A stretch of 52,615 nt of DNA from Escherichia phage vB_EcoP_Bp7, in sequence record NC_079181.1; one strand, 5' to 3'. The translations under genes and the position numbers were made by a program. Within the stretch, counting starts at the first letter, position 1; each line of letters starts with the position of its first letter. Below, piece after piece: positions 6,576 to 41,022 of the stretch. Under the pieces are notes generated by a model, which had not been told where the DNA came from, ran no database searches, and saw only the letters and a program-made list of their open reading frames with translations.

Positions 6576-6859
6576 ACAAGAATTCAATCTTACGTTATGT
6601 TGGTAAAACAAATTACAGCTTTACCTACGGTAAGAAGTACAAAATCGTCGCAGGTCGTGGTGACGGGGTTCCTCGCAACAACGGTACACTCGGTGCGTAT
6701 ATTCAATCTCCTTTGGGTTTTGTCGTTAATGATGATAACCGCAATTTATGTTATCGTACATTCTCCGATAATTGGGAACTTGTAAAAGATTCTGGTGAAG
6801 TTAGTTGGTATAAACCTGAATCAAACATGGACCCAATTCCAATTTCAAAGGTGATGTAA
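6572..6859 (+). CDS. hypothetical protein (95 aa)
   Basis: ORF with ATGA overlap to the previous gene. Confidence 0.5.
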   Translation: MNKNSILRYVGKTNYSFTYGKKYKIVAGRGDGVPRNNGTLGAYIQSPLGFVVNDDNRNLCYRTFSDNWELVKDSGEVSWYKPESNMDPIPISKVM

Positions 6860-7059
6860 TGCTTGTAAATACACACCTATTCAGTCACAACAGTTTTGCA
6901 ACAGAGAACATTGATGCAGGTTGGACACTTTGGTTTGTGGAAGCTCGTGGTAATCCGTATTGGGATAATGTTCAATCTATGCGCTTTCCAGTGAAGCCAA
7001 CCAAAAAGCAAATACGCAAATTGCGTAGAAAGTTCATAAACGATTGCAAGTCCTGTTAA
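6859..7059 (+). CDS. hypothetical protein (66 aa)
   Basis: ORF overlapping the stop of the previous gene. Confidence 0.45.
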   Translation: MLVNTHLFSHNSFATENIDAGWTLWFVEARGNPYWDNVQSMRFPVKPTKKQIRKLRRKFINDCKSC

Positions 7060-7101
7060 ATTAACAATGGGCATCTCTTGCAGGTGTCCATGATTAATCT
7101 A

Positions 7102-7120
7102 ACATTAGTTGATTGTGAAT
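7102..7120 (+). promoter_or_regulatory. phage promoter-like motif P2 (acattagttgattgtgaat)
   Basis: Part of a ~65-bp intergenic module (7055-7120) duplicated at 7446-7509. Confidence 0.55.
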
Positions 7121-7138
7121 AATAATTGGAGAATAAAG

Positions 7139-7450
7139 ATGGCAAAAGTTCTGAACTATTCGAAAGTTAAAGGTGTTCACAACAACGCAGTGTATATCGG
7201 TCGAGATATGAAGGGAATTGCTGGAAACAAGAAATTCCACAATCCTTTTAAAATGTTTAAAGAAAGCCAGAGAGACTACGTGTGCGAAGAGTATCGCAAA
7301 TATTTGTGGAAACAAATTAAATCTGGTGAAGTAACAATAGATGATTTGCTGGCATTAGATGGCAAAGATTTAGTTTGTTGGTGTGCCCCAGCACGCTGTC
7401 ATGGCGATACAATAATGGCCGCAATAGAGTGGGCGAAGAAGCAACGTTAA
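7139..7450 (+). CDS. conserved phage protein, possibly DUF4326-like (103 aa)
   Basis: ATG at 7139 with GGAG 7 nt upstream; C-terminal LVCWCAPARCHGD motif. Family assignment is from memory, not a search. Confidence 0.5.
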   Translation: MAKVLNYSKVKGVHNNAVYIGRDMKGIAGNKKFHNPFKMFKESQRDYVCEEYRKYLWKQIKSGEVTIDDLLALDGKDLVCWCAPARCHGDTIMAAIEWAKKQR

Positions 7451-7490
7451 ATTAACAAGGAGCATTCATTGAGTGTTCCTGATTAATCTA

Positions 7491-7509
7491 ACATTAGTTG
7501 GATTTGAAG
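7491..7509 (+). promoter_or_regulatory. phage promoter-like motif P3 (acattagttggatttgaag)
   Basis: Conserved motif about 75 bp upstream of the 7583 gene. Confidence 0.55.
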
Positions 7510-7582
7510 AGGGACAAAGCTATTCCGTGGTTAGCAATGTCACTGAAACTTAAACTGTAATTAACTTAAGAGAATCTTAATC

Positions 7583-7960
7583 ATGGCACAATATTCAGAT
7601 GTAAACACTGGCATCATCGGTCCTAACGGCTTCAAGAAAGACCCAAAACATCCCGACATTCGTGGGCGTATTAACGTTGACGGAATCTGGTATTGGGTAT
7701 CTGGTTGGAACAAGCAAGCAAATGGTAATGAGTTTACCTCACTTGCATTAACCATCATGACTCAGGAACAGGTTGATGAAATGATGCGTAAGCGTGAGGA
7801 GAAAGCTAAAGCCAAAGCTCAACCTCAAGCTGCCGCTCAACAGCAACAGCAACGTCAACAGCCGACTCAGCAGCAACAAACTCAGGCACAACAGCCTCAG
7901 GGAAATTCTGCATACAACCCAAATGAGCCGAAAGACTTCGACGACGACATTCCGTTCTAA
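7583..7960 (+). CDS. small protein with Q-rich linker and SSB-type acidic C-terminal tail (125 aa)
   Basis: C-terminus ...DFDDDIPF matches the E. coli SSB tail; ~70-aa N-terminal domain then a QQQQ-rich linker. Confidence 0.6.
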   Translation: MAQYSDVNTGIIGPNGFKKDPKHPDIRGRINVDGIWYWVSGWNKQANGNEFTSLALTIMTQEQVDEMMRKREEKAKAKAQPQAAAQQQQQRQQPTQQQQTQAQQPQGNSAYNPNEPKDFDDDIPF

Positions 7961-8057
7961 TGGAGATGCCCTATGAAAATTTTATGTTTTATAGGGCTAC
8001 ATAATTGGGAAATTTCACACGAAAACGATTATGTAACCATTTGGGTGTGCAAACACT

Positions 8058-8987
8058 GTGCAGCAATGCGTGAGGAATATCATGGACAATAAGGTTATCG
8101 AAATACCTGCCAACTTGGTTAAAACTGGCGACATTGTATTTCATGATGGTAGAGGGTATCCGATTGTACACATCAACAGACTTAGTGGTGTAGTTCAGCT
8201 ACAATACTCTGGCGGATTCTTTAACTTTGAGTTGGGCCGTATAGTCAGAGTATTGGAAAAACGTCCCACTACAGAATCTTTTACAAAGCCTACCACAACC
8301 CGTGCAGTATTGGCGCATGAAGTACGACCTGGAAACATTTTATCTTACGGAATCAGATTCTTTGAGATAAAGGAAGTTAAAGACCTTGGAGAAATACCTG
8401 AAAATGTGGTTCGATTAACCCATGTAACAGGATACTTTGACTTTTCACCCAACCGCATAGTCCACATTGTTAATACGCCACCAGCACAGGAAACTCCTAC
8501 GGTGAAGTTCGATACTCAAATAAAGCCAGTGTTCCTTCCATATGAGGAAGCGGTGAAACCATTCTCAGATGAAGAGGATGTTCTTGGAAAAGATTTGGAA
8601 GTTGGTGATATTATTTGGGTCAATAATACTTGGGCCACTATAACAAATATGTATAAACATCCAAATTCACCATTTAATAAAGTGAATGTGGACTATGATG
8701 GCGTTAAAGGTTTACAAGTGCGCCTCACATTAACTGGAACATTTTCAAGAAAGGTAAGGGCAGTTATGGAAACATTATATATTCAAAATGCAATCGAAGC
8801 ACAACGTATTCTTCTGCAAAAGCTCGAGCAAATGCTGGAATTAGCGCAGCTCCTACCAACAAAAGATGGCAAGATTGCAATCAGCAACTGCAACATTCGC
8901 GTGGACAAGGCATCAATCACTAAAGCCGCACGCGATGAAATGAAAGTTGCTGCAAGCAAATCCGCAGAACTTATCAAGAAGCTGTAA
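8058..8987 (+). CDS. hypothetical protein with three internal repeats and a C-terminal coiled coil (309 aa)
   Basis: Repeated modules around TGDIVFHDGRGYPIV / PGNILSYGIRFF / VGDIIWVNNTW; alternative ATG at 8082. Confidence 0.55.
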   Translation: MQQCVRNIMDNKVIEIPANLVKTGDIVFHDGRGYPIVHINRLSGVVQLQYSGGFFNFELGRIVRVLEKRPTTESFTKPTTTRAVLAHEVRPGNILSYGIRFFEIKEVKDLGEIPENVVRLTHVTGYFDFSPNRIVHIVNTPPAQETPTVKFDTQIKPVFLPYEEAVKPFSDEEDVLGKDLEVGDIIWVNNTWATITNMYKHPNSPFNKVNVDYDGVKGLQVRLTLTGTFSRKVRAVMETLYIQNAIEAQRILLQKLEQMLELAQLLPTKDGKIAISNCNIRVDKASITKAARDEMKVAASKSAELIKKL

Positions 8988-9042
8988 TTAACAGAGGTCA
9001 TTCCACTTCGAGTGGCCTCGATTAATTATTACTGGAGTATTT

Positions 9043-11342: not shown

Positions 11343-11410
11343 TTCCAAGCTGTTCCGTCGAAGTGCCAAGCGGGTTTTGTGCTCGCATTGGCCTTCGGCT
11401 TTAGTCTGAA

Positions 11411-11429
11411 ACATTAGTGGGATTTGATT
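11411..11429 (+). promoter_or_regulatory. phage promoter-like motif P4 (acattagtgggatttgatt)
   Basis: Conserved motif, preceded by tctgaa as in P5 and P6. Confidence 0.5.
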
Positions 11430-11551
11430 CGGACCACTTAGGGAAGAAAGGCATTATACACTTATCGCCAAATGGGTGTCAAGCACTTTCTTCATTTATT
11501 TTAACTTATTCTTATTATTCTTTTTGTTTGGAATATTGGAATAATTCTGAA

Positions 11552-11570
11552 ACATTAGTTGGAATTGAAG
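11552..11570 (+). promoter_or_regulatory. phage promoter-like motif P5 (acattagttggaattgaag)
   Basis: Conserved motif; followed at 11590-11660 by a structured element. Confidence 0.55.
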
Positions 11571-40997: not shown

Positions 40998-41022
40998 GGG
41001 GAGAAATCCCCAGCTTTCCTTT
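40998..41022 (+). terminator. terminator-like hairpin after the tape-measure gene
   Basis: GGGGA-GAAA-TCCCC followed by AGCTTTCCTTTT. Confidence 0.55.

Follow-up and report, generated by a model that had tools for sequence, protein, structure and literature searches.

A duplicated hairpin-promoter module around a DUF4326 gene in Escherichia phage vB_EcoP_Bp7: a candidate slot for the exchange of accessory genes

Why is a single small phage gene enclosed on both sides by nearly the same short piece of DNA? The question is raised by Escherichia phage vB_EcoP_Bp7 (record NC_079181.1; the whole stretch analysed, 52,615 nucleotides (nt) of one strand, is called the window here). A module of about 65 nt stands at 7055-7120 and again at 7446-7509 of the window, with a gene for a DUF4326 protein between the two copies. 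The original prediction, made from the letters of the DNA, had noticed this duplication and suggested that it marks either a moron-like insertion or a recombination hotspot. The explanation that we favour, and regard as reasonably probable when taken as a whole, is that the modules bracket an exchange slot with promoters at its borders, in which accessory counter-defence genes are swapped in the manner of the PeSL cassettes of T4-type phages. By megablast of positions 6800-7700 against phage records, 44 records were matched, almost all of them from Escherichia and Yersinia phages of Carltongylesvirus, and the window comes from a phiEcoM-GJ1-like phage of this genus (Cleopatravirinae, Chaseviridae). 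The type member of the genus is phiEcoM-GJ1 (GJ1 below) and its members are myoviruses encoding a T7-like single-subunit RNA polymerase, the gene for which begins at base 1 of the window.

The repeated module and the gene between its copies

A repeat search recovered the module at both places as two pairs of segments, 7084-7119 with 7473-7508 (36 nt, 86%) and 7055-7074 with 7446-7465 (20 nt, 90%), the members of each pair being 389-391 nt apart. Two tracts are exactly the same in both copies, namely GTTAAATTAACAA (13 nt, at 7055 and 7446) and TGATTAATCTAACATTAGTTG (21 nt, at 7091 and 7480). When <=3 mismatches were allowed, the 21-mer had two sites only in the 52.6-kb window against a chance expectation of 0.01, and two matches were reached in 0 of 100 shuffles. 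Both copies lie on the plus strand and have the same order of parts, which is a stop codon, ATTAACAA, a hairpin (allele A in copy 1, allele B in copy 2), TGATTAAT and a promoter-like motif. Each copy had been placed directly after a stop codon; both begin 2 nt before a TAA (7057-7059 and 7448-7450) and overlap it, and the first of these, the stop of the upstream DUF7279 gene, falls inside copy 1. Copy 1 is best matched in phages PO103-1 (97%) and JL1 (96.6%), while copy 2 is 100% identical to the sole module of TH53 and to copy 2 of JL1. Copy 2 is the resident 'promoter 3' module ahead of the gene for the single-stranded DNA-binding protein, ssb. A simple recent (tandem) duplication of the module was rejected, because the central hairpins of the two copies are distinct alleles, A and B, each of which some other phages carry in their only module.

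In both copies the right-hand 20 nt align with a feature that lies ahead of ssb in GJ1 (CAACATTAGTTGGATGTGAG) and is annotated there as 'putative phage promoter 3', and the promoter motif noticed in each module agrees with this annotation. We infer that copy 1 carries a putative promoter for the phage single-subunit RNA polymerase ahead of the DUF4326 gene ('P3a', 7100..7119, plus strand, TAACATTAGTTGATTGTGAA) and copy 2 a putative phage-polymerase promoter with the GJ1-type motif for ssb ('P3b', 7489..7508, plus strand). It was found that the motif wwACATTAGTTGGATnTGA has 11 sites in the window, all on the plus strand, as compared to 0.71 expected by chance. These promoter-like sites, at 2265, 3115, 7100, 7489, 11409, 11550, 12748, 13516, 21484, 41022 and 52530, are the counterparts of the nine promoters annotated in GJ1, together with the extra copy in the slot and one site near the right end. 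As in the GJ1 promoter family, the motif matches on the coding strand, between genes and upstream of a gene. The extended 65-nt module occurs only twice in the window and the other nine promoter sites have different sequences upstream of them. The core ATTAGTTG also stands ahead of the gene carried in the slot (the cargo) in PP101, SSEM1, Faunus and phiA050. A set of promoter-like sites that is conserved in this way and has a core common to several genera would be a concrete candidate for the still unmapped Chaseviridae promoter, and an RNA structure goes with it. A sigma-70 promoter was also considered and rejected, since the best match, at 7099-7126, reaches 9/12 only and there are 2 sites against 4.1 expected. 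The sites at 11409 and 11550, which match promoters 4 and 5 of GJ1, are only 141 nt apart with a doubtful open reading frame (ORF) of 62 amino acids (aa) and a GTG start between them; the stretch 11409-11568 could code for a small RNA or be another cassette remnant.

The original prediction was right about the repeat and its promoter motif and missed the conserved RNA hairpin within the module. This hairpin spans the left two-thirds of the module and has two tiers, a 5-bp (base-pair) outer stem (AUUAA/UUAAU) and a 10-bp inner stem separated by a 2 x 2 internal loop. Allele A (atgggcatctcttgcaggtgtccat) lies at 7060..7098 on the plus strand, with the outer stem at 7060-7064/7094-7098, the inner stem at 7067-7076/7082-7091 and the loop at 7077-7081. 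Allele B (aggagcattcattgagtgttcct) lies at 7451..7487, also on the plus strand, with its outer stem at 7451-7455/7483-7487 and its inner stem at 7458-7467/7471-7480, and the differences between the two alleles are compensatory. The folding energy (dG) is -14.9 kcal/mol for allele A (z = -3.3) and likewise -14.9 for allele B (z = -5.0), and in neither case did any of 200 shuffles fold as well. On the minus strand the fold of allele A is weaker (-10.6); the opposite strand folds clearly worse because several of the pairs are G.U. A third allele, C, is present in relatives, and further versions of the hairpin are found in Suwonvirus (PP101, PM1), Loessnervirus (SSEM1), Faunusvirus and Aeromonas phage phiA050. 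Covariation was counted on 11 distinct hairpin versions from six genera. Standard pairs are formed by 97.6% of the pair cells and 8 of the 15 pairs have double compensatory changes, that is, changes on both sides. These values were reached in 0 of 500 shuffles, and sliding the 3' partner by 1-3 columns left 36-41% paired. Among these versions one U.G pair is invariant and another is mostly G.U, which argues for a strand-specific structure and points to RNA. The hairpin is thus a conserved, strand-specific RNA structure. It may serve as a 3'-end element of the upstream transcription unit, where it could act in pausing or termination of the phage polymerase, in RNase processing or as a 3' stabiliser. 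The SA91KD record annotates a 'rho-independent terminator' over the hairpin (WebGeSTer and TransTermHP) and describes the hairpin and promoter pair as terminator plus promoter. An Rfam scan of 6800-7700 with E up to 1 matched no family.

Exactly one ORF lies between the modules, as had been predicted together with its CWCAPARCHGD motif. It occupies 7139..7450 on the plus strand, starts with the ATG at 7139 and encodes a DUF4326 protein of 103 aa; a Shine-Dalgarno sequence read from the DNA, GGAG, stands at 7128..7131 on the same strand, 7 nt ahead of the ATG. The suspected family was matched in Pfam (PF14216, E = 5.6e-22) with a score of 78.6 bits, where the cutoff is 25, and over positions 9-81 of the 82 in the model; the protein also matches phrog_464 (E = 9e-35). 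The motif C80-W-C-A-P-A-R86-C-H has the pattern of a CX5R-type loop and the invariant residues include C80, C82, C87 and H88. DUF4326 has been predicted to belong to the rhodanese-phosphatase superfamily, having a phosphatase-like fold with a CX5R active-site loop (PMC9503650). The AlphaFold model of the protein has a pLDDT of 95, and a PDB sequence search with the single DUF4326 sequence gave no informative match. The protein is 99% identical to that of JL1, 97% to that of PO103-1 and 82-84% to those of Pantoea phage SSEM1 and Pectobacterium phages PP101 and PM1. In SSEM1, PP101 and PM1 the DUF4326 gene stands directly upstream of ssb, with a ATTAGTTG promoter-like site before it and the same hairpin-promoter module after it. 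The order DUF4326, module, ssb is therefore kept in two other genera, Loessnervirus and Suwonvirus. The GC content of the gene is 39.7% and that of the surrounding early region is 40.3 +/- 2.5%. Matching GC and synteny across genera suggest that the gene has long occupied this position and, as far as such comparisons can tell, it is probably not a recent foreign insertion.

The naming of these proteins in the records is uneven. The 103-aa DUF4326 proteins are called 'NrdA.1-like' in several phage records, while many records have 'ribonucleotide reductase NrdA-like' or 'ribonucleoside-diphosphate reductase alpha subunit', names presumably copied from the gene name nrdA.1. Annotation has drifted elsewhere too, as a 95-aa ORF of Yersinia phage PYps3T is named 'DNA polymerase'.

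Presence, absence and replacement between the modules

The slot region was compared in 19 isolates and in four Chaseviridae of other genera, and the census was widened by probing IMG/VR and metagenomes with the conserved ssb leader, a scan which added 11 loci and no new cargo type. The census holds 32 Carltongylesvirus-type loci, and the metagenomic contigs among them are not de-replicated. The slot is empty, with a single module, in 21 of the 32 loci (13 with allele B and 8 with allele A). It holds DUF4326 between modules A and B in three (the window, JL1 and PO103-1), a Macro protein of 146-150 aa in four (DE15, TH37 and two metagenomic contigs), a NADAR-like protein of 160 aa in two (gp18 of ST32, and Pel53) and a DprA/SLOG-like protein of 173 aa in two (flopper and Ecp_YSF). 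Presence, absence and replacement of the gene thus take place exactly between the repeats, with breakpoints at the module edges. The suggestion of a recombination hotspot is well supported by these 32 loci, that is, by genome comparison and not by experiment.

The joints are sharp. The match of JL1 and PO103-1 to the window begins only at 7055-7060 and that of many relatives only at 7445, while TH53, SKA49 and PYps3T match both sides and exactly the unit of ~391 nt is missing. The nearest relative changes along the locus as well. The segment 6059-6858 is closest to ST32, TH53 and flopper (95-96% DNA identity), 7055-7509 to JL1 and PO103-1 (97-100%), and 7510-8990 to Bp10 (98.4-98.9%), where JL1 falls to 91.9%. 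In the alignment GTTAA is the exact onset of homology among the window, JL1, Bp10 and TH53, despite three unrelated genes upstream of it. A crossover in the 13-nt tract would predict a chimera of DUF7279, hairpin B and ssb leader, and this arrangement was found in TH53, SA91KD and SKA49. If the crossover falls in the 21-nt tract instead, hairpin A should come to stand before the ssb leader, as it does in 2KOFFS, FXie, BSBP01 and four metagenomic contigs. The NADAR-like, SLOG-like and Macro ORFs have a common 5' leader up to the Shine-Dalgarno sequence and a common 3' module C that starts exactly at the TGA stop, which argues that unrelated ORFs have been swapped ORF-precisely inside a constant frame. 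The leader GTGAATAAyAAyTT..GGAG is common to the DUF4326 gene and the other cargos. TH53 is empty whereas flopper carries the SLOG/DprA-like gene, though their flanks are 97% identical. The cargos are far more similar between genera (DUF4326 82-84%; DprA-like 81% between flopper and Faunus) than the adjacent ssb (47-55%), and this would fit with enzymes that are strongly constrained or, alternatively, with cassettes that pass from genus to genus by way of the conserved module.

It was also observed that the flanking hairpins differ in allele in all 11 of the 11 occupied slots (A..B, B..C or A..C) and that allele C is never the sole module. This difference could result from selection, since long direct repeats of identical sequence would lead to deletion of the cargo.

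What kind of genes are exchanged here? The Macro cargo of DE15 and TH37 matches Pfam PF01661 (E = 1.5e-8), and its best PDB matches are the DarG macrodomains 5M3I (E = 2.6e-27) and 5M31/5M3E (E = 4.2e-22), which come from M. tuberculosis and T. aquaticus (PMC5179494). By its closest solved relatives it is a DarG-type macrodomain, and it may act on ADP-ribosylated DNA. It is 81% identical in aa to proteins encoded in SU10-like phage genomes of ~76 kb, a similarity that points to horizontal acquisition. The gp18 family of ST32 has no match in Pfam, the NADAR model PF08719 included. A profile built from 29 homologues matched NADAR 8bau (E = 2.8e-4) and YbiA 2b3w (E = 0.049). The AlphaFold model of gp18 (pLDDT 94.9) gave 2b3w (YbiA), 8bau and 8bat as the top three Foldseek matches with probabilities of 0.99-1.00, and YbiA and the two NADAR structures were its only significant matches. 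The copy in Pel53 is annotated as DUF1768, an older Pfam name for NADAR. Judged by profile and predicted fold, the gp18 family is a divergent member of NADAR. The 173-aa protein of flopper and Ecp_YSF matches phrog_768 'DprA-like' (E = 1.8e-49). PDB searches with single sequences gave no informative match for gp18 or for the SLOG-like protein, and a SLOG-like profile yielded nothing useful.

Phage NADARs neutralise DarTG1 defence by taking ADP-ribose off phage DNA (PMC11257639), and DarG macrodomains reverse the DarT modification (PMC5179494). The alternative cargos belong to families known or predicted to reverse ADP-ribosylation. A connection with DUF4326 is given by three polypeptides (P0024, P0050 and P0052) in which an N-terminal DUF4326 is fused to a homologue of the NADAR-like cargo. 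The single gene and its flanking repeats had been seen correctly in the original prediction, and what it did not see is this functional linkage among the alternative occupants of the slot.

The same cargos move between positions too. In Aeromonas phage H1 a DUF4326 gene (70% aa identity; 1801-2112 of the compared stretch) is located downstream of the RNA polymerase gene and not before ssb, and in Proteus phage Myduc a NADAR-like gene (69% aa identity; 1501-2001 of the compared stretch) lies in the early region ~0.8 kb past the terminal repeat, again not before ssb.

The exchange slot weighed against other explanations

The explanation that we favour could work as follows. Each cassette would consist of a transcript-end RNA hairpin that starts from the upstream stop codon, followed by a promoter of the phage's own T7-like RNA polymerase. 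Copy 1 (7055-7120) would give the DUF4326 gene its own transcription start and copy 2 (7446-7509) would serve ssb, so that the DUF4326 gene could form a self-contained unit of promoter, short leader with Shine-Dalgarno sequence, ORF and hairpin. The cassettes and the ssb leader (7509..7582, plus strand, near-identical in 19 of 19 Carltongylesvirus loci) are conserved across the genus and the ORFs between them are not, which suggests that the cassettes act as homology arms, with the ssb leader as the right-hand arm of the slot. A crossover between the two direct copies would remove the gene cleanly, recombination with a co-infecting relative would insert or replace a cargo, and the expression of ssb would be undisturbed by such loss or exchange. 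The slot could be used in this way for alternative ADP-ribose-processing enzymes, namely DUF4326, the DarG-like Macro, the divergent NADAR and the DprA/SLOG-like protein, and the cargos would most likely be counter-defence genes expressed together with the replication genes.

Could the modules be ordinary regulatory repeats instead, any gene at this place needing a hairpin and a promoter and the variability of the slot coming from unrelated illegitimate events? The hairpin and promoter core is conserved across genera under functional constraint, and other promoters of the window, for example those at 41022 and 13516, also have a hairpin upstream. However, the other nine promoter sites have the core of ~19 nt only and not the 65-nt module, the breakpoints of many independent genomes coincide exactly with the edges of the module, and one ORF is replaced precisely by another. 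Both of the predicted chimeric single modules exist, whereas random illegitimate events would not yield such uniform joints, and we consider this explanation unlikely. A similarly low probability is given to an ancestral order DUF4326-module-ssb that has been subject to loss only, the empty slots being repeated deletions and the locus being no insertion site. The synteny kept in Loessnervirus and Suwonvirus, the 13- and 21-nt direct repeats, which favour deletion, and the majority of empty loci (21/32) would all agree with it. On the other hand, three other unrelated ORFs stand in the same frame, so that replacement must also occur; the cross-genus identity of the cargos (81-84% aa), far above that of ssb, suggests cassette transfer between genera; and a different phage family has a protein closely related to the Macro cargo.

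It is very unlikely that a foreign DUF4326 gene with its own promoter and terminator was recently inserted before ssb in the lineage to which the window, JL1 and PO103-1 belong, as morons are. Such an event would explain why the gene is missing from most Carltongylesvirus genomes (3/32 loci carry it), DUF4326 is widespread in unrelated phages (1,790 phage records by tblastn), and the Macro cargo, with its close relatives in the SU10-like phages, does look horizontal. But the promoter is of the phage's own type, the GC content matches the surroundings, and the closest homologues outside the genus have the same position and module in SSEM1, PP101 and PM1, while the best matches in other phage families reach <=57% aa identity. 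The idea of a moron-like insertion thus stands insofar as the gene is an accessory one with a promoter-like site of its own; the phage-polymerase type of that site, the GC content and the synteny in two other genera speak against the rest of it.

Some points weigh against the exchange slot itself. Promoters of Chaseviridae are still predicted and not yet identified experimentally according to the ICTV (PMC12842549). There is no T-run after either hairpin (the tail is TGATTAATCT) and an intrinsic-terminator scan calls neither of them; for want of the T-run, a canonical rho-independent terminator was rejected. A near-isogenic pair differing only by the DUF4326 unit was not found, the flanks of JL1 and 2KOFFS being 89-92% identical, so that the direction and age of the events cannot be read, and it may simply be that one site has long had the two alleles A and B. 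The SLOG-like cargo matched the Pfam DprA and SLOG models weakly, SLOG below the cutoff, and no SLOG-DUF4326 fusion was found among 31 homologues. For this reason the link between SLOG and DUF4326 is taken from the literature, in which homologues of a DprA-like phage anti-Avs protein are described as carrying DUF4326 (bioRxiv 10.1101/2025.06.06.658234). It is by association only that the DUF4326 protein of the window would be a counter-defence enzyme tied to ADP-ribose chemistry.

Among described systems the PeSL of T4-type phages comes closest to the module. The elements of a PeSL are the stop codon, AT-rich DNA, a stem-loop containing G-T pairs, and a promoter. PeSLs border variable ORFs, and single genes are lost or gained through recombination between the copies on either side (Arbiol et al. 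2010, PMC2839356; Comeau et al. 2014, PMC4122927). In the module, likewise, a stem-loop with G-T pairs and a promoter are joined in one short intergenic unit that starts at the upstream stop codon and leads on to the Shine-Dalgarno sequence and the beginning of the gene after it. Both kinds of cassette flank non-essential variable genes and lie at the junctions of insertions, deletions or replacements between relatives; relatives differ by one gene and one cassette, a single chimeric cassette remains, and homologous recombination is proposed in both cases. The module differs in that its putative promoter is of the single-subunit phage-polymerase type, whereas the PeSL has a sigma-70 early promoter, and in that there are two extended modules here as compared to ~50 dispersed PeSLs in T4-type genomes. 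It belongs to Chaseviridae and not to T4-like phages, its hairpin is without a poly-G/poly-C stem and without a T-run, and terminator activity and mini-circles are only predicted for it. The cargo set of the slot is functionally coherent, and such coherence is not reported for PeSLs. By analogy, then, the module would work like a PeSL but lacks two of its defining features, the sigma-70 promoter and the many copies dispersed over the genome.

Other systems are comparable in part. The morons of lambdoid phages are extra genes with their own promoter and terminator that lie between conserved genes, as described by Hendrix and colleagues. Here too an accessory gene, probably beneficial in some hosts only, is present or absent between conserved neighbours and would have its own transcription signals. 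Unlike a moron, it is found in a virulent phage, has a phage-polymerase-type promoter, no compositional contrast, and synteny across genera, so that the mark of foreign origin is not seen. The intergenic hairpins of T7 are RNase III processing sites that leave stable 3' ends and are often near class II/III promoters, as known from Dunn and Studier. T7 also has its own single-subunit polymerase, and its hairpins likewise have two stems with a small internal loop between transcription units and act as strand-specific RNA. The hairpin of the module is shorter (5 + 10 bp with a 2 x 2 internal loop), it belongs to no Rfam family, and cleavage would be suggested by analogy only. Two of the alternative cargos belong to the families of AdfN and the phage NADARs that act against DarTG1 (PMC11257639) and of DarG (PMC5179494), and like those they are single-domain phage proteins encoded among replication genes. 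The Chaseviridae cargos differ in being assigned by sequence and fold; the DUF4326 protein of the window is in neither family and the NADAR-like cargo misses PF08719.

It is possible, though we hold it only tentatively, that the slot is a dedicated bay for one interchangeable ADP-ribose eraser at a time, a PeSL-like device in which DUF4326 and the SLOG-like protein would be alternatives to Macro and NADAR. If this is true, DUF4326 (~1,800 phage genomes) and the small DprA/SLOG-like proteins would be new classes of counter-defence enzymes, with DNA ADP-ribosylation of the DarT type or ADP-ribose-derived immune signals as their targets. The idea behind the PeSL, that regulatory cassettes double as recombination arms, would extend from T4-like phages and sigma-70 to a family with its own T7-like polymerase. 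Sharing of the slot and the DUF4326-NADAR fusions give this widespread DUF a specific hypothesis, namely that it could be playing a role in ADP-ribose reversal or processing in the conflict between phage and host.

Neighbouring genes and minor observations

The upstream neighbour of the slot is a DUF7279 gene (6859..7059, plus strand, 66 aa; Pfam PF23945, E = 4.3e-15). This gene is itself variable, as it is missing in GJ1, JL1 and 2KOFFS and other small ORFs stand in its place in Bp10, PO103-1 and Ecp_YSF. The allele in the window has 72-80% DNA identity to relatives, yet its flanks have 92-96%. Downstream lies the conserved ssb (7583..7960, plus strand), which is so annotated in relatives and has 98.9% DNA identity to that of Bp10. 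In Shigella phage 2KOFFS an 'endonuclease' ORF of ~130 aa follows directly after ssb (2574-2966 of the compared stretch) and is missing there in the other loci, so it represents a second kind of insertion or deletion near the slot.

It should be noted that the record PP952070.1, 'Staphylococcus phage Pel53', is labelled as a phage of Staphylococcus hyicus. Its slot region is typical of Carltongylesvirus and near to that of E. coli phage ST32, its cargo is 95.6% identical in aa to the one in ST32, and the stated host looks doubtful.

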